Positions 32,902 through 45,676 of a stretch of DNA of 64,000 nt are shown piece after piece. Below the pieces are notes generated by a model that saw only the letters and a list, made by a program, of their open reading frames with translations, was not told the DNA's origin and ran no database searches. This stretch comes from an uncultured cyanobacterium (GTDB lineage Bacteria; Cyanobacteriota; Cyanobacteriia; Cyanobacteriales; Microcystaceae): contig CAWEDJ010000067.1 of assembly GCA_963807635.1 (NCBI GenBank), positions 1 to 64,000 on the forward strand. The letters run 5' to 3'. The stretch's first letter is position 1; each line of letters opens with the position of its first letter. The position numbers and the translations under genes were made by a program.

Positions 32902-33909
32902 TTAGTAATTTTTCCTTCTGGACGATAGATGATGTATATTTTGTGATCGCTGAACGGTTTCTGAGGGTAATTCGCCGAAACGTTTTTGATAACTCTGACT
33001 ACATCTTCCCAAATGTCCAAACTGATATTTGATGATCAAATCCGTAATTCCTAAGGGTGGCATTACCTGTTTTAATTCTTGATGTAAGGCATCCAATCGT
33101 GCTTGTTTCAAAAATTGGAGCGGTGAACAGTCGTAATATTTTGCAAAAGAGCGTTGTAAAGAACGGCCACTTACCCCGATCGCCGAAGCAATATCTCCTA
33201 AACTAATCGGTTTTTGTAAATTTGCCATCATGAATTCCTGAGCCATTCTTACCGTGCGATCGCTAACTATTCCCTCATTTTTTTGAAGAAAAGCAGAATA
33301 ATTATGGGGATGATATTGCAGTAATCCCGTCACTAAAGTTTGTTCTAATTGGGGTAAAAATAGAGAGTTACAAGCCGTTGATTGCCAAGCAAATAGAATA
33401 AGTTCCTTAAGACTGTGACCAAAGACAGTGGTTAGATCCACTTCGGGCTGAAAAGTAATGAATGAATTGATGGATTTCCCTGATAAATTAGCTAATTCTT
33501 GATGTAATTTTTGGTAGGGAATACAGATAGAAATTCCCTGACCTCTCGAACTAATCTGACCCGTTAAGTCCTGTTGCGGACTAAATAAATGAGCTGTTGT
33601 GATGGAAGAAAATATTGGCTCAGACTGATTAATTCTTTCCTGAATAATTCCTTCTAGAGGAAGATAAAAAACGTATAAATCATCTGGCTGAAAACGGATT
33701 AATTTCTGCGCCCCTTGCCATTGTAAATAGACCATTGCTGATTGATGAAAGTTGGCATAATAATAACGAGTTAAAAAGGGAGAATTCGGTTCTAAAAATT
33801 CACTTTTGCAAGGGCCGATTAACTGCGTTAACATTACCTCCGCCTCTTCGTAATTATCACTTTCAAGCAGGGGAGTTCTATCTAGGGGGAACAATAATTG
33901 AGGATTCAT
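32902..33909 (-). CDS. AraC/XylS-family transcriptional regulator, divergent from the NHase-like operon
   Basis: C-terminal double HTH: ISLGDIA..GVSGRSLQ..SPLQFLK..RL..HLGR.SQSY..RFGELPSET. Confidence 0.93.
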   Translation of the reverse strand: MNPQLLFPLDRTPLLESDNYEEAEVMLTQLIGPCKSEFLEPNSPFLTRYYYANFHQSAMVYLQWQGAQKLIRFQPDDLYVFYLPLEGIIQERINQSEPIFSSITTAHLFSPQQDLTGQISSRGQGISICIPYQKLHQELANLSGKSINSFITFQPEVDLTTVFGHSLKELILFAWQSTACNSLFLPQLEQTLVTGLLQYHPHNYSAFLQKNEGIVSDRTVRMAQEFMMANLQKPISLGDIASAIGVSGRSLQRSFAKYYDCSPLQFLKQARLDALHQELKQVMPPLGITDLIIKYQFGHLGRCSQSYQKRFGELPSETVQRSQNIHHLSSRRKNY

Positions 33910-34122: not shown

Positions 34123-34467
34123 ATGAAAAATTTAATCCCAGGAACGATCGCGGCTTTTGTATTAGCCTCTGTCAGTTTTGGTCTCGTCACTCAGCCTGCC
34201 TCTGCGGAAACCGTCAAGGGGATGGCGCAGAAGGGAGGGGCAAATTGCAAAATGAAAGCGGTAGATCAATTCAGTGTCCCGATGTCGGATGTGAGTGTCT
34301 CCTTGGGAGCAACCCTACAGGAGTCCATCGATAAGGGTGACATCACTTTAAATGACATCAAAAAGGATGGTTTAAGTTTTAATTGGGTGGTCACACGGGA
34401 CGGCAAAAAAATGGAAGGTTATTGTAATACCAACGGAAAAGGCAAGGTTACTGAATTTAGACAGTAA
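34123..34467 (+). CDS. Small secreted protein with two cysteines
   Basis: AGGA RBS; Sec signal ending QPASA; ANCKMKA...EGYCNT. Confidence 0.8.
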   Translation: MKNLIPGTIAAFVLASVSFGLVTQPASAETVKGMAQKGGANCKMKAVDQFSVPMSDVSVSLGATLQESIDKGDITLNDIKKDGLSFNWVVTRDGKKMEGYCNTNGKGKVTEFRQ

Positions 34468-34562
34468 TATTCTGCTTTTTTAAAGCCAAAATTATAGTCT
34501 GGGAAGAGGATTAAAATTAAAACTCGTCCCATTTTTTATTAAATTGTGTGAGGAGCGAATTA

Positions 34563-36409
34563 ATGAAAAGTTTACTGATCAAAACCTTAAAAATATTTCC
34601 CCTAATCCTGGGCGGTTTTGGACTCATATTACCCGCCGCGATGTCGCAGACACACTTCGCGATCGCTGATGAATTATCGTCCCCAACGCCTGAAGTTCTA
34701 ACGGAAAAAGATCCTACCAACATAATGTTATCAACCCCTGAAGTTGATCCCTCCGCCAATCAACTTTTGCAACAAATTCAACGGCTAAGACAACCCAAAG
34801 GTTTTCAAGTTACGAATAATGATTTATCCCAGGTTACAGATGTAAACCAATTGCGGGATGTGGAGCCGACTGCTTGGTGTACGAAGCTCTCAAAAGTTTG
34901 GTGGAACGCTATGGCTGTATTGTGGGCTATCCCGATCGCACCTTTAGGGGAAATCGAGCGTTATCTCGTTGGGAATTTGCGGCGGGCTTAAATGCCTGTA
35001 TGAATACAATGGAGCGACTGCTTCAGGAAAATGTAGCAGTGTTACGGGAAGATTTAGATAAATTAAAACGATTAGCTCAGGATTTTGAAGTAGAATTAGC
35101 CGCAATGGGAGTAAGGGTAGATAACCTCGAAAGTCGGGTTTCCTATCTCGAAGATCATCAATTTTCTACGACGACTAAATTATTTGGAGTCGCGACCATG
35201 TATGTGGCAGGGGTGGCAGGAAATAGAACTGCAACGAGTAATATTATTACGGATCAAGGGAGAAAAACGCTCCGTCCTTCTGAACAGATACAACGTCAGG
35301 CAACCCTTCAATATTCCAGTTTATTATCCTTAACGACAAGTTTTAGTGGAACTGATAGTTTATCGGTTGATTTGTGGACAAGTAATTTAACCCCCTTTAG
35401 TTCTTCCCTCGCAGGTTTTACGACTAATGTGACGGGAAGTTATATGAGTCGTTTGTCCTTTGATGCACCGCCTTATAATAATAGTTTAGCGATCGCAGAT
35501 TTGATTTACAAATTCCGTCCCTTTGAGAATCTGTCTGTATTTATTGATGCCGTTGGTGGAGAAGTTTCAGGAGAATTATTAACATCAACTCAACCTTTTG
35601 CCATCTTTGCACCCTATACGGTTTCTATTAGCCGTTTCGGTCGTTTTGACCCCATTTATTATCAAACCTTAGCCCGCCCAGGGGTTGCCGCTAACTACAA
35701 ATTTAGTGATCAATTATCTTTAGGAGCAGGGTTCTATGGAGACTTTGATAATGGAAATCCCAAAACAGGTTTTTTCAACGGCGGTAATGCGGCGATCGCC
35801 CAGTTAGCCTATTTTCCCACCGACACCCTGGGCATGACCCTGGTTTATGTCCGTTCCTATAATCCTGCGGGGCCAGGGGTTGCCGTATCAGGTCAAACGG
35901 GCAGTTTGTACGCCGATCAACCCTTTGGAACGAGTTTCCTTCCCCCTGGGGCTTTTGGCAATCCCAATCCTGCTCCTGCTTCCATTGCCACTTCTGCTGA
36001 TCACACGACCTTTGGTTTTGGTTGGCGAGCATTGCCGGAATTAGCCTTTACAGGAGATATCGGTTTTGCTTTTGCCCACGCAGAACAAGCGAACCCCGCT
36101 TTTAATGTCAATGCTGGGGATAGTGCTACCATTTTTGAATGGAATTTTGGTCTATCTTTAATTGATTTATTTGGGCAAGGAAATGTCGGTTCTTTGATGA
36201 TTGGAAATCCCTATCGTGTGATTAGTCAAAGTAGTAGTGGTTTACGACCTGAAGGCGATACGACTTGGCATATTGAAGCGGCCTATAAATACAATCTCAA
36301 CAATAATATTTCGGTGCAACCAGGTTTTTTAGTGGTTATTCATCCTGAAAATAATAACAGTAATCCTCCTATTTGGATTTGGCAATTGAAAACCTCCTAT
36401 TTCTTTTAG
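34563..36409 (+). CDS. SLH-domain/OprB-type cyanobacterial outer-membrane porin (frameshift near 34876)
   Basis: SQVTDVNQLRDVEPTAW/YEALKSLVERYGCIVGYPDRTFRGNRALSRWEFAAGLNAC, QFSTTTKL, terminal Phe. Confidence 0.92.
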
Positions 36410-36490: not shown

Positions 36491-37476
36491 ATGAGCCAAA
36501 ACAATCATCCTTCCGAACCCCAAAATACAGAAGAAAAAACCAATGCTTCTCGTCGTAAATTTCTGCAAAATGTCGGATTAGCGGGATTGTCCGCAGGAGC
36601 CGCAACGGTAGCAGGTCAAGGGCTTTTAGAAGATGTCAGTGCTGAAACCCCCGTTAAAGATGTCGTCACTCCCGACGAATCGCGGGCCATGCACGGAGGT
36701 TCCCCTGTTGCAGACACGACCTTTAAAACTCCCGAAGGTAGTACAGAAGTCGTGCTTCCCCCGTTAAAAGAACGAGTGCTGGCCATTAAACAATTACTGA
36801 TTGAGAAAAAAATTGTCAGCGAAGAAGGAGTCCAAGGCTTTGTCAACTATTACGAAAAAGTGGTTGGCCCTCACTTCGGAGCCGCCGTTGTTGCCCATGC
36901 CTGGAAAAATCCTGACTGGAAAGCCAAACTATTAGCTCCACCAGCAGATAAACCTTTTCAAGCGGCCATTTTGATTCGAGATTTTTTATTTAACACGGTT
37001 AACCCTGATACGGGAAAACCCTATCTCAGTGATCAAATTACCTTTGGTCTAACGATTGGCCCGAAGGCGAATATATCCGTATTTTTGCCAACGGAGAACA
37101 GCAAGAAAATGGCAAAACTATCTTTGTTCATAATCTTGTTACTTGTACGGTTTGTTCCTGTTATCCTCAAGCCCTTTTAGGAACTCAGCCTATGTGGTAC
37201 AAATCCCAACAATACCGCGCTCGCAGTGTGTCCGATCCCTTTGGCGTATTGGTAGAATTTGCAGAAGATGCCCATAAAGGTAAAGCGGATCATTTGAAAC
37301 AATTTAAAGATTACACTGCTAAAATTGATGAGTTACGGGTTTGGGATTCTAACTCAGAAGTTCGTTTTTTTGTCATTCCAGAAATGCCGAAAGCCTGGGC
37401 AAATTTAAGTGAAAATGAATTGCGAAAACGGGTAACACGCAATGCCATGTTAGGAGCAGAAATTCTTTACAGTTAA
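36491..37476 (+). CDS. nthA: Nitrile hydratase alpha-like subunit with Tat signal (~328 aa after correcting a 1-nt deletion near 37060)
   Basis: GPHFGAAVVAHAWKNPDWK; frame-1 HNLVTCTVCSCYPQALLGTQPMWYKSQQYRAR; RVWDSNSEVRF; N-terminal SRRKFLQ. Confidence 0.9.
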
Positions 37477-37508: not shown

Positions 37509-38331
37509 ATGGAAGGGCCACACTACAACGCAGGCTGGACGGGCTACGGCAAAATTCCCTTTAAAGATCAACCCGACAATCAAGCCTGGTTAGAAGAATG
37601 GGAAGGCCAACTGGGCGCGATGTTTGCGACGTTGAGTACCGTTTTTGAAAAGGGTTTAAAACCAGGTCAACCTGTTCCTTTTTGGGGCTTAGATGCGGCT
37701 CGTTGGGGTCGGGAAACCATGAATCCCCGCGATTACATGAATCGTAACTACGATGCTTTATGGTTGGAAACGTTATGTCTTTTAATCACAATGTATGGCG
37801 ATAAATTAGGCGTTTCTGTTGCCGAAATGGAAGCCCGAAAAATTACGACAGCTCCTGCCCAAAAACGTGCTAAAGCTATTCGAGATCAAGCTTTCAAAAA
37901 AGCTGTACCCTGGGGTGGGTCGTCCTGATGCAAAAGGATTATATCAATCGGAACAATATGATCCTGCGAAGGTGGGTTCTATTGAGGCTATTGGGGCTAA
38001 AGCTAAATTTAAAGTGGGCGATCGCGTGCAGTGTATTAATCAACTTTCCACAGGACATACCAGGGAATATCCCTATTTTCGTGGCAAAGTTGGGACAATT
38101 GTTGCGTACTACGGTTTAGCAGAAGAAAAACGCAACGAGAAAGGACAAATTGAATTTCAAGGAGTTTACTATGCTCCCTATCCTGATATTGCTTGTCGCG
38201 GTTTACAAAAGTTCTATACGCCTTTGTATAGCGTGCGCTTTGAAGGAAAAGATCTTTGGGGAGAAGAGTTTGTTGATCAGCGATCGGTTATCTATGCGGA
38301 TGTTTTTGAACCTTATGTGAAATTAGTCTAA
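37509..38331 (+). CDS. nthB: Nitrile hydratase beta-like subunit (~273 aa after removing one A from the run at 37896-37901)
   Basis: AAGGAG RBS; MEGPH..GYGKIP..EWE, LDAARWGRETMNPRDY..W, FKVGDRV..GHTREYPYFRGKVG and LYSVRF..DLWG..FEPY motifs. Confidence 0.88.
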
Positions 38332-38399: not shown

Positions 38400-38899
38400 A
38401 TGACAATTCTCGATCCGATTCTGGAAGAATTAACCCAAGAACCGATTCCCCCTTTATTGAAAGATGATGGCAACCCATTTTTCGAGATTCCTGGGAAGCT
38501 GAAGCTTTTGCGATCGGCAATTTGTTAATTAAACAAGGCTTTCTTTCCTGTTTAGAATGGGTGAATATTTTCAGTGAAGAAATTAAAAAAGCTCAAGTTC
38601 AGGGTGATCCCGATCGCGGCGATACCTACTATAGTCACTGGTTAAATGCCCTAGAAAGAGTATGTATCGAACGGGGTTTAACGGACTGGGAAACTTATCA
38701 GAAACAACTACAACTCTGGCATCAAGTGGTTTTAAATACGCCTCATGGTGTTCCCCTGGCGATCGAAAATGCCTATTTAGAAACCGACGATCACCACCCT
38801 CATCATGATCATTCCCATCATCACGGGCATCATCATCACCATCATTCAGACAAATTACCTGAAAATATGCTCAAACCTGTGGCAGTCTTCAAGCGGTAA
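38400..38899 (+). CDS. Nitrile hydratase accessory/activator protein with His-rich tail (~166 aa; frameshift near 38475)
   Basis: Corrected reading DGNPIFRDSWEAEAFA, EW, YYSHWLNALE, NTPHGVP; tail HHPHHDHSHHHGHHHHHH. Confidence 0.87.
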
Positions 38900-39026
38900 A
38901 AATGATGGATTTCCTATAGTCACGGTTATTTTTGTTACAAAATCTCGTTGAATTGATTGATTATAATCACGAACGTGAGGTAACTCTCTCAAGTTTTTCC
39001 TTGACTAAACTTTTTTGAGCTTTTTT

Positions 39027-39491
39027 ATGGATTGTCGTCACATTCAGTTTTCTGTTGATAAAAACCTAATTGACTTGGGCCAACTACAATCTCTTTTTAA
39101 TGTGTCTGCTTTTTGGGCAAAGGATAGAAGTCTCCAGTCCCTCGAAATTGCGATCGCCCATAGTGAGCCTGTGGTAAGTGTGTGGGATCATTCCTGTCTG
39201 ATAGGATTTGCGAGGGCTACCTCTGACGGTATTTATCGAGCGACAATCTGGGATGTGGTCATCCATCCCGACTACCAAGGAGCAGGGTTAGGACGAAAAC
39301 TGGTACAAACGGTTTTAGCCCATCCCCATATCAATCGAGTCGAAAAAGTTTACCTAATGACCACGAACGAGCAGAATTTTTATAGCCGCATTGGTTTTGA
39401 GGAAAATCAGACCACCACAATGGTCATTAATCTTCAGCAAGGTTTGATCCAGCAGGAGTTGCTAATTGCAACACACCCTGTATCTGTGTAA
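39027..39491 (+). CDS. GNAT N-acetyltransferase (Ycf52-like)
   Basis: GFARATSDG, WDVVIHPDYQGAGLG and FYSRIGF motifs. Confidence 0.88.
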   Translation: MDCRHIQFSVDKNLIDLGQLQSLFNVSAFWAKDRSLQSLEIAIAHSEPVVSVWDHSCLIGFARATSDGIYRATIWDVVIHPDYQGAGLGRKLVQTVLAHPHINRVEKVYLMTTNEQNFYSRIGFEENQTTTMVINLQQGLIQQELLIATHPVSV

Positions 39492-40245: not shown

Positions 40246-40857
40246 GAATTTGTTGAAAAGTTTTTAAATTATTGACTTGAAAAGTAACGCAACCGACACG
40301 TAAAGTTTTCCACCCGTGACCCGTCCATTGAATGACTGTTGAGGGTTTCCCGATCGCCTGAACGTCCTCTAAATTATCACAATTCAGGGTTGCTACGTCA
40401 GGAAAAACCTGAGCGATCGCTGACATTTGCATTAGGGGAGGTTGTCCCGACAGATTTGCGCTAGTTGTTGCTAACGGGCCAGTTTGAGCCAGGATGTCTA
40501 GGGCGATCGCAGAATCAGGAATGCGAATACCAATGGTTCCAGAATTCAGGGGATTCATCTCAGCAGGAACTTTCTCAGAAGCAGGTAAAACCAAGGTTAA
40601 TTGCCCTGGCCAATAATCTTCGGCGATCGCTTGCCAAATCCCTCTTTCCTCCTGTGTCCCCAGAACATAATCCCAAATTTCATTCACCGTTGCCGCCATT
40701 AAAATTAACGGTTTATCGGTCGCTCTTTGTTTGAGGTCAAAAATCAAATCGGCCTTTTGGGGTAAAACAGCTAAACCAGGCACCGTATCCGTCGGGAAGC
40801 TCACCACTTCCCCGCGATCGCCTTTTGAATTAATTCAGCTTGAGTAACTAAGGGCAT
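40238..40857 (-). CDS. tsaC: L-threonylcarbamoyladenylate synthase (frameshift near 40812)
   Basis: FPTDTVPG, KQR..DKPL, WPGQLT, GIRIP and TSANLSG motifs. Confidence 0.9.
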
Positions 40858-40875
40858 GGGAGAAATCTTTTAAAT

Positions 40876-41764
40876 TCAATAGGCCACAACAAAACGTTCG
40901 ATACCTGCTAAATCCTTTAAAAGTTGAATACCTTGATATTGTCCCTGATTTTCTAATAATTCGGCAACCCCAGGGAGCCTGACCTGCCATGATTTCCACT
41001 AGCCACAATCCCCCCGCAACCAGATAATCAGGAGCCGTTTCTACCAAATGACGAATGGCGACTAAACCATTTTCTCCGCCATCCAGGGCTAAATGGGGTT
41101 CATGCTGAGTGACTTCGGGTTGCAGGCCCGCAATCATTGAACTAGGGATATAGGGCGGATTAGAAATCATTCCCTGAATCTGTCCTTGGAAATGGGCCAA
41201 CGGTGTCCACCAAGAGCCAGAAAAAAACTCGATGCGATCGCCTAACCCATAACTTTGGGCATTTTCCTGGGCGATCGCCAAAGCGTCTAAACTGGTATCC
41301 ACCGCAAAAATCCTTGCTTCGGGAAAACAACGGGCTAATCCCAAGGCGATCGCGCCGCTTCCTGTGCCTAAATCCACCCAATTTCCCTGATTAAGCTGGG
41401 GATTAATCACTTTCTCCTGAGAGAGCCAATCAATGATTAATTCGGTTTCAGGACGGGGAATCAAAACGGCAGGGGATACTTTCAAAACAAAATCACGCCA
41501 AGGAGAAAGACCCGCCAGATATTGAATGGGACAGTTTTCCGTGAGACGGGTTTGCCATCGCTCGTTTAGAACTGACCAGGATTGGGGAATAGGAATCTGC
41601 GATCGCGACTCAAAAGAACCCAGACGGAGGGAAAGTTTATCCACATCCGTCCAAATTTGCAAGAGCCAGTCCACCTCATCAGGGGAGATTTCCTGCGCGA
41701 TCGCCGCTTGTCTTGCTTGTTTGCGCCAGACAGCCAATTCTTGACCAGAAACCCAAAAGGACAC
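40876..41764 (-). CDS. prmC: Release factor glutamine methyltransferase (frameshift near 40972)
   Basis: LIPRPETE, DLGTGSG, NPPY and ALDGG motifs. Confidence 0.95.
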
Positions 41765-41781: not shown

Positions 41782-42563
41782 TTACTTAGGGGGTTTGTTA
41801 TTGGCAGGAGCCGCAGGTTTGGCATTACTCGCCCCAGGAGCTTGGTTAGACTGTCCCTTAATCGCGGTTTGGATAAATTTTAAGGATTCTTCCGTGGGAA
41901 CTAAACGAATACTCTTGAGCATTTTATCGTCACTGCTTTGTAAAGTACCCATCACATTTTCCAGGGCAATGACATCAATTTTGATGGTAGAAGCGAGTTC
42001 GGGCTTATCCTTTTTAAAGCGATCCACCATTTCTTGAATTTGCTTTTCTTCAAAGAAAAAGGGAATAATTTGTTCATTATTTTGCTGGATAGTCAAATAG
42101 CCCTGTTCTTTACCACCACGAGCCACATACAAGGGAACGCCCCCCTGATATTTTTGACCGCCGCCGTGAGTAACTTAGTCGCAATCGCCACTTCCGTCGG
42201 AACGGGAACATAGGCAAAATTGAGGGCATCAGTTTTCCCCGCATTCGCGATCGCCAACTTGTAAACTTCCCCCAAAGAAACAGGCTGAACCGTTACCTTA
42301 CTTGCAATATCAGGTTTATCTTTCTTTAATTGTTGAAAAAACTTTTGTGCTTCCTGTTGACTCACAAAAATTCCCGTCACCTTTTTATTGTTATCAATGG
42401 CAACCAGAGGCGCACCCTGGGCATCGGCAATGGTAAAAACGGGAATTCCTTGCAAAAGCTTGACAACTTCTTCCGTCGGCAGAGCCAACACCTTTAAAGT
42501 TTGTCCTACTAAAGTCGTTAATACCGCTCCACCGACCAGACCCCAACGGATAAATGAATTCAT
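41782..42563 (-). CDS. tic22: Tic22-like periplasmic chaperone (frameshift near 42150)
   Basis: L.GIPVFTIAD..GAPL, VSLGEVY, GVPLY, IPFFF and IRLVP motifs. Confidence 0.85.
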
Positions 42564-44847: not shown

Positions 44848-45676
44848 CTAAAATTCATTACCTAACAAAAATTTTTGAATCGCGATCGCCACTCCATCTT
44901 CCTCTACATCGATGGTCACCCAATCCGCTATGGCTTGAACCTCTGGAGGGGCGTTCCCCATTGCGACCCCAATCTCGGCATACCGTAACATTTCCAGATC
45001 ATTGAAATTATCTCCAATGGCCATCACTTGCTCAGAAGTTAATCCTAAAATTTCTTCGGCCAGATGGCGAACCGCTAACCCCTTATTGGCTTGGGGATGG
45101 GTTAATTCCAGATAAATTTCTGTCGATTGGGTGACATGGAGTTCATCTCTGCTGAAGCGATCGCTAAAATGAGTAATTAATTCTTGGATTAAGGTCGCAT
45201 CCTGACTCACAACCAGGAGTTTTAAACTAGATCGCTCGGCAATGGAGCCTAAATCTGGCACAATAACGGGTTTTGCTCCAGAACGCAACTTATAACGCTC
45301 GGTTTCTAGGGTAATTTCCCTGACGTACAGTTGATCATCATAGTAACAATGCACATCCAATCTGGATCTAAACTGCGGCTGTTCCAGATGATCTAAAAGT
45401 GCCAGAGCAATATTGGGCGTGACGGATAATTCTTGATAGGTTTTGTCGGTTTGGGGATCTTTGATTAACGCGCCATTGTAAGCAATTAGGGGCAGTTGGG
45501 AACCGATATCGTGATAAAAAGGCAGGGGCCGAATGGTACATTCTTCCCGTTGCGAGGGCGACCTGAATTCCTTGAGCCTGAACTGCTTTGATCGCCGATT
45601 TAATCGGTTCACGGACGCTATTGGATTCTCCCGCGATCGTACCGTCAATGTCCAGGACTAATAGGCGAATATCCAC
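44848..45676 (-). CDS. Cof-type HAD-IIB hydrolase (frameshift near 45525)
   Basis: LDIDGT, LATGR, NGA, GDNFND and MGNA motifs. Confidence 0.9.

Follow-up and report, generated by a model that had tools for sequence, protein, structure and literature searches.

Cobalt-type nitrile hydratases of a divergent clade, found chiefly in lake samples, with a predicted twin-arginine signal on the alpha subunit

Introduction

The nitrile hydratase (NHase) alpha subunit encoded at 36491..37476 on the forward strand of the window, by which is meant the whole analysed stretch of 64,000 nucleotides, is on its sequence a member of a divergent, cobalt-type NHase clade that is seen mainly in lake samples. The enzymes of this clade are predicted to mature in the cytoplasm and to be exported in folded form through twin-arginine translocation (Tat), and to this reading we assign a probability of about three in four.

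The NHase family and Tat hitchhiking are both known already. For PaoABC and HybOC, export by hitchhiking has been established (PMC4273604), and in these Escherichia coli enzymes the signal sits on one subunit while signal-less partners are escorted after assembly, just as is proposed here for the clade. PaoABC and HybOC are redox enzymes with experimental proof of export, whereas the clade enzyme would be a hydro-lyase for which we infer it. The present finding adds a separate, deep clade that has lipoprotein and dockerin variants, a linked porin and an altered pocket.

A literature search for periplasmic, extracellular, secreted, exported or twin-arginine forms, which covered few of the subscription journals, found no NHase described outside the cytoplasm. 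Periplasm, secretion and signal peptide go unmentioned in the available text of PMC7193024, as do signal and periplasm in PMC3323583, and the word nitrile is absent from the available portion of a 2026 review of the Tat system (PMC13673990). In PMC3462710, NHase and twin-arginine occur in connection with unrelated genes, and in PMC11928666 and PMC11316326 the search term occurs only in a reference line.

Results

A predicted Tat signal precedes the NHase core

In the open reading frame that starts at 36491 on the forward strand, residues 1-51 (36491..36643) are predicted to form a Tat signal peptide. A 19-residue n-region is followed by the motif S20-R21-R22-K-F-L-Q (36548-36568, with the arginine pair at 36551-36556), the arginine pair is followed by 21 uncharged residues (product P0018), and the peptide ends with V-S-A at residues 49-51 (ending at 36643), a cleavage-like site when judged by eye, as are the A-x-A-like sites in the alphas of relatives. 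The initial annotation had seen the Tat consensus in this peptide, and its observation is confirmed by the curated model TIGR01409, whose 19.8 bits exceed its cut-off of 16.7. The h-region is mildly hydrophobic, with a best 12-residue Kyte-Doolittle mean of 1.54, and the c-region is acidic, which counts against export. As genome background, a lenient Tat rule is passed by 15 and a strict rule by 2 of the 2656 open reading frames of at least 150 amino acids. TatC is encoded on contig C40 of the same genome and members of the TatA/B family on C98 and C11, so that the motif, the uncharged h-region and the presence of TatA and TatC in the host together correspond, on sequence, to Tat class I. TatC also occurs in all five other host genomes tested.

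Alternative starts of the alpha gene, at codons 33, 67 and 88, are disfavoured, since the conserved arginine pair would then stay untranslated; the possibility, raised in the initial annotation, that the true start lies downstream of the pair is disfavoured with them. Between V-S-A and the start of the NHase core at R95 there is a linker (36644..36772) of about 43 residues, close to the 45 or so first reported. The linker is, however, not featureless: it contains a conserved G-G-x-P motif (36695-36706, residues 69-72), found in 98 of the 123 listed clade alphas. A monomer model built for an intact relative gives the linker low pLDDT.

The signal is conserved throughout a deep clade

The listed clade alphas consist of the best 120 of 191 matches to a query from an intact relative, together with three full-length representatives from a profile search. 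In that profile search the listed clade rows score at least 381 bits and all other rows at most 221, and the 28 clade rows included in a quick tree, built from 123 core sequences, come out as a single branch with an SH-aLRT value of 100 and a stem of 1.04. Three records that are fragments or chimera (P0130, P0134 and P0188) were excluded from this tree, and 88 other full-core control rows were retained in it. Record P0134 joins a porin start to a piece of a clade alpha, which is probably due to a deletion or a misassembly. Clade alphas are mostly 300-350 amino acids long.

The Tat rule is passed by 114 of the 123 listed clade alphas, the window product included, and all nine misses are truncated at the N-terminus; the signal is thus conserved in homologues, a check that had been proposed at the outset. 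After the first misses had been seen, the rule was widened to allow His after the arginine pair. With the same rule, five of 140 other alpha-like proteins pass, in a control set that holds many fragments and eukaryote-type beta-alpha fusions; four of the five seem to be genuine Tat-bearing conventional NHases, and the fifth seems to be a chimera. In the 123-row alignment the arginine pair is present in 114 of the 114 rows that have the column, and columns 2-20 of the n-region are at most 44% conserved. Among curated models at E of at most 0.05, TIGR02811 matches 95 of the listed clade alphas and TIGR01409 only 60 of the 123, a figure that counts against export.

Seven of the 114 clade signals end in a lipobox, and the named carriers of these are Actinomycetes. 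Actinomycetes have no outer membrane, and an exported enzyme would need an anchor. Tat lipoproteins correspond to class II in the portion of PMC13673990 available. One actinomycete genome has both a conventional alpha, on which no signal is seen, and a lipobox alpha.

Consider now the case that the arginine-pair peptide is a remnant or a chaperone-binding signal, for example a docking site for the activator, and that the enzyme stays in the cytoplasm. The six conventional cyanobacterial alphas examined, which are 205-211 amino acids long and leaderless, would fit such a history. A sequence of this kind would have to account for an arginine pair that stays invariant across 114 of 114 rows and has an uncharged stretch behind it, for a signal that switches to lipobox type in 7 of 114, for betas with an extracellular dockerin and for envelope genes that travel with the operon, and we regard the case as highly improbable.

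Tat signals on NHase alphas have probably been gained more than once, since Tat-bearing conventional alphas are placed apart from the clade in the tree. These conventional cobalt-type NHases with Tat-like leaders (the P0404 group, P0139, P0151 and P0128) have the arginine pair on alpha, as in the clade, but their alphas are about 240-285 amino acids long and keep Trp116 (4/4 and 119/119) where the clade has Gln. The four that were included in the tree fall among signal-less alphas, and for these the starred branches require two changes or more. One of the control proteins leads to a second Tat-bearing lineage, in which 23 of 119 matches are positive. Among conventional cobalt-type alphas, the lineages with Tat-like leaders are P0404/P0441-P0471, P0139, P0151 and P0128.

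Hosts among the listed matches are cyanobacteria, Actinomycetes, Verrucomicrobia, methanotrophs and Chromatiaceae. Those named are Snowella, Microcystis, Leptolyngbya, Cyanobium, Methylocystis, Actinomycetes, Verrucomicrobia, Methylococcaceae, Methylumidiphilus and Thiodictyon, and all of them are metagenome bins. The closest named matches to the cyanobacterium of the window are bins of Snowella and Merismopediaceae. The 19 DNA runs found to match this stretch come from lake, freshwater, runoff or mat samples. The clade is rare, occurring in 2 of 401 cyanobacterial genomes, while 5 of the 401 have conventional, leaderless alphas of 205-211 amino acids. A host labelled Nitrosopumilus (L036) was set aside, because its locus, on a contig of 2.8 kb from a bin of 3.9 Mb, is probably misbinned bacterial DNA. 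One bin (G028) has two copies of the operon, and in two Snowella loci a PIN-domain gene stands between alpha and beta (L015:3159-3569 and L016:1889-2299).

Frameshifts in the window operon

In the window, a divergent AraC-family regulator (32902..33909, reverse strand; Pfam HTH_18 and AraC_binding_2) is followed on the forward strand by a gene for a small protein of 114 amino acids (34123..34467) with a Sec-like leader, as seen by eye, two invariant cysteines and no family, by a gene for an outer-membrane porin of OprB/SomB type (34548..36409; NF033921, 448 bits) directly upstream of alpha, by the alpha gene itself, by the beta gene (37509..38331) and by the gene for a His-rich NHase accessory protein, or activator (38400..38899; TIGR03889, 51.9 bits over 46). 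On sequence grounds the AraC-family gene is likely to control the operon.

Four of these genes are interrupted by single-base indels relative to three relatives: a loss near 34880 in the porin gene, a loss near 37060 in alpha, a gain near 37908 in beta and a loss near 38471 in the accessory gene. As assembled, alpha is therefore a 229-residue open reading frame that lacks the metal site, PF02979 matches it in two pieces, as TIGR03888 does beta, and alpha would be about 328 amino acids long if intact. Intact alphas of 316-342 amino acids with the same signal are found in relatives G003, G014, G012 and G028, and an intact beta of 273 amino acids in the relative locus L014.

The four frameshifts are probably assembly errors. 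At the indel sites the window departs from contigs of three public runs, three of the four sites lie at short runs of G or C, and elsewhere in this assembly frameshifts affect 16 genes of a test set of 75 conserved genes from G005. In the window flank, comparison of conserved genes finds 5 of 22 rows frameshifted, corresponding to four distinct genes (38896-39488, 40835-41764, 41782-42563 and 44848-45676). With about one in five conserved genes split by an indel, calls of pseudogenes or split genes in this genome assembly are suspect. A UrtA-like gene on contig C36 is also split by an indel. The source reads were not found among indexed sequencing runs, the best of which shares at most 31% of words.

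If the operon were instead a decaying pseudogene in this strain, only the relatives would make the exported enzyme. Four neighbouring genes with a frameshift apiece, four in 4.15 kb, exceed background at a Poisson p of 0.015 for a region chosen post hoc, and the operon is patchy, being present in 2 of 5 congeners. On the other hand, there are no in-frame stops, and on the branch of this genome synonymous changes exceed non-synonymous ones, by 32 to 10 in alpha and by 15 to 4 in beta. Together with the indels at short G or C runs and the frameshifts in test genes and flank rows, this makes decay rather unlikely. Non-synonymous changes are unevenly distributed between this genome and L014, with 23 versus 1 in the porin and 4 versus 1 in beta, an imbalance that counts against assembly error. 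Promoter and terminator scans gave chance level only, and a single RNA run yielded two short contigs, of depth 2.7 and from a relative, which is no evidence of expression.

Envelope and metal genes accompany the operon

Gene context was surveyed at 75 loci, 28 from genomes and 47 from metagenomes, which include near-duplicates and are not independent, after exclusion of 14 conventional loci. A porin gene is present in 34 of the 75 and precedes alpha in all 12 cyanobacterial genome loci. In a porin tree with two outgroup porins only, the operon porins cluster and roughly follow the alpha groupings. Genes for a cobalt or nickel importer are found at 25 loci (HupE at 12, CbtB at 8 and NicO at 5), and an AraC gene likewise in 25. 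Homologues of the small protein at 34123 occur in 5 of 61 related genomes, all five being among the six with a Tat alpha, and such homologues adjoin the operon in Methylococcaceae, with two copies in L034, and in Thiodictyon. The Methylococcaceae operons L032, L033, L035 and L037 are flanked by PEP-CTERM genes, and the cobalt transporter genes cbtB and cbtA come after them.

Two tblastn queries, which detected the control L136, found an amidase-signature gene at none of the 75 loci; the survey was confined to amidases of this type. Urea as a product that is then used by urease was considered and found unsupported: pieces of a UrtA-like gene exist, but a search of this 94% complete genome found neither urease alpha nor FmdA.

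The initial annotation had placed the exported enzyme in either the periplasm or the thylakoid lumen. For cyanobacteria the periplasm is quite likely the right half of this statement, since many of the lineages that have the clade lack thylakoids and the porin travels with the operon in cyanobacteria. That Tat export could end in the thylakoid lumen follows from the operation of cyanobacterial Tat at both membranes by a sorting rule that is unclear, according to the part of PMC12341915 available. Against a lumenal enzyme stand the many thylakoid-free hosts and the porin adjacent to alpha at all 12 of the cyanobacterial genome loci, and the mild hydrophobicity of the h-region (1.54) also speaks against it, within a published link between hydrophobicity and lumen that covers Sec signals only. 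The lumen is therefore an improbable destination.

Signal-less betas, some of them with dockerins

Neither an arginine-pair pattern nor a hydrophobic start is found in any of 44 clade betas, so that the initial observation of a signal-less beta holds over the clade; by eye the accessory protein of the window has no signal either. Three of the 44 betas carry a C-terminal dockerin (PF00404, E 6e-9; 36.4 bits over 22.9 for the beta of L039), a feature limited to one lineage and absent from the window. An extracellular dockerin on a beta without a signal makes hitchhiking the simplest explanation, and the dockerin betas, together with the lipoprotein-type signals, lend independent support to export.

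In L039 (Thiodictyon) and L105 (a related metagenome contig) the gene that follows the dockerin beta encodes a protein of PEP-CTERM type with a Sec leader, and this is in turn followed by a second beta without dockerin. The complete set of Tat alpha, dockerin beta, Sec/PEP-CTERM cohesin-like gene, plain beta and activator spans L039:6824-11099 and L105:4962-9724, and its composition suggests two forms of one enzyme, one tethered and one free.

A complex model of the dockerin with the PEP-CTERM protein scores 0.76 against 0.06 for the best control, with a contact agreement of at least 97% and a partner pLDDT of at least 89, a mark attained by 116 of 157 solved pairs and by 2 of 215 mismatched ones. 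The model may pass through likeness to solved cohesin-dockerin pairs. When compared with cohesins directly, the partner has a weak Pfam match (E 0.23), an Atlas score of 0.86 to a cluster of which only 24% is cohesin, and a Z of 6.9 to the cohesin fold with an rmsd of 3.5 over 115 residues, a value tied with other beta-sandwiches. The identity of the predicted partner as a cohesin is thus a lead only. The arrangement resembles known cohesin-dockerin and PEP-CTERM exosortase systems in that a Dockerin_1 beta adjoins a Sec/PEP-CTERM beta-sandwich protein (L039, L105), and it differs from these anchoring systems in that the bearer of the dockerin has no signal of its own and the partner is only cohesin-like.

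In Verrucomicrobia the betas (L029:6623-7594, L030 and L031:7896-8867) have a C-terminal extension of about 50 amino acids. The extension has no Pfam or NCBIfam match, and we take it to resemble the tails of secreted verrucomicrobial proteins.

An NHase fold with a changed pocket

The model of an intact relative alpha has the NHase fold with a mean pLDDT of 74, residues 1-76 being disordered except for a helix at the arginine pair, and Foldseek matches it to cobalt NHase structures with E of about 1e-11. In the window, alignment to NHase and thiocyanate hydrolase places the metal motif C-T-V-C-S-C, followed by Y-P-Q, at 37144..37170. A Thr after the first Cys and a Tyr after the last are the cobalt-type pattern. 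The motif C-x-x-C-S-C is found in 121 of 123 listed clade alphas. In beta, R65 corresponds by alignment to R52 of 1IRE_B, and R185 to the H-x-R arginine; both are invariant in 15 of 15 sequences, and we take them to be the NHase active-site arginines. C-X-X-C-S-C is how the NHase metal motif is defined in the available part of PMC7193024.

By its alignments the clade enzyme would work like a cobalt NHase. It has the fold of the cobalt NHases of Pseudonocardia thermophila (1IRE, 3VYH), Pseudomonas putida (3QXE) and Bacillus/Geobacillus (1V29, 2DPP), and with them it also has in common C-T-x-C-S-C-Y, the beta arginines and the gene set of alpha, beta and activator. At about 30-34% identity to these enzymes, the clade differs from them by an alpha that is more than 100 amino acids longer, by the Tat signal, the G-G-x-P linker, insertions and a Gln at Trp116, by the lack of any linked amidase found, and by porin, lipobox or dockerin features. 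With thiocyanate hydrolase (2DD4, 3VYG) it has in common the cobalt fold and the cysteine motif, and it is set apart by an unsplit beta, Gln at Arg136, the Tat signal and a score of 98 bits, to be compared with 155 bits for the NHase model; the TIGR03887 cut-off of 291 is not reached. Intact relatives also stay below the NHase equivalog cut-offs, with 153-158 of 249.85 for TIGR01323 and 110-119 of 152.2 for TIGR03888. By these scores the clade alpha belongs to Pfam PF02979 and lies outside both the NCBIfam NHase equivalog and thiocyanate hydrolase.

Directly behind Y-P, 118 of 121 clade alphas have a Gln, as does 1 of 136 others. This residue aligns with alpha-Trp116 of the P. thermophila cobalt NHase and with gamma-Arg136 of thiocyanate hydrolase, a position that presumably helps to set substrate choice. 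The titles of PDB entries 3VYH and 3VYG refer to swaps of the Trp116 and Arg136 residues. Gln here replaces the pocket Trp or Arg. The substrate is probably of higher polarity than the ones that textbook NHases take.

This replacement, the long stem with several insertions, the absence of an amidase-signature gene from all 75 loci and the scores below the equivalog cut-offs would also fit an exported clade with another function, which could be action on a different small compound, C-N or C-S, or else cobalt binding without catalysis. Such a function, which overlaps with the preferred explanation as far as export is concerned, we consider unlikely, given that C-x-x-C-S-C and both beta arginines are conserved, that the NHase model outscores the thiocyanate hydrolase model and that the beta gene is in one piece, unlike the split gene of thiocyanate hydrolase.

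Discussion

The proposed pathway of export and action can be described as follows. Cobalt would enter the cytoplasm through HupE, NicO or CbtAB, and the His-rich activator would load it into alpha, whose cysteines would then be oxidised. Loaded alpha would bind beta, TatC would read the arginine-pair motif, and the complex would cross the plasma membrane, in good probability with beta as a hitchhiker. The signal would then be cleaved after V-S-A, or lipidated instead in Actinomycetes. In cyanobacteria the enzyme would reside in the periplasm and there convert a nitrile, admitted by the co-encoded porin, to the amide by hydration, while at Thiodictyon-like loci the dockerin on beta would tie the enzyme to the PEP-CTERM surface protein. 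That NHases mature by subunit swapping and cysteine oxidation is described in those parts of PMC7193024 and PMC11672702 that were available. Cytoplasmic maturation followed by Tat export with beta carried along, as first suggested from the window alone, is supported by the conserved signal, the signal-less betas, the Tat genes and the cobalt importers at 25 of 75 loci.

A wider reading, which we offer tentatively and hold to be possible rather than likely, is that bacteria of lakes, in at least four phyla, have by horizontal spread acquired an envelope enzyme with the cobalt NHase fold and a novel substrate, with its beta carried by Tat and sometimes clipped to the cell surface by dockerin and cohesin. 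The substrate would then be a small polar nitrile or an N-cyano compound, to which no characterised NHase is dedicated. Cyanobacteria are reported to hydrate sulfoxaflor (PMC13243292), an activity that is not tied there to a gene of this clade.

If this reading is true, it reveals a hidden step of freshwater nitrogen chemistry outside the cell, and Tat hitchhiking has a new use, in surface display. An exported clade would add to the Tat repertoire a non-corrin cobalt enzyme with oxidised cysteines, and it hints at a nitrile in lakes that is not yet known. It would also allow a test of whether export is gated by loading of the metal and oxidation of the cysteines, a matter of relevance to how NHases mature, and the natural lipoprotein and dockerin variants ease the testing of the hitchhiker claim. 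The clade would, finally, offer a natural route to NHase biocatalysts that are periplasmic or displayed on the surface.
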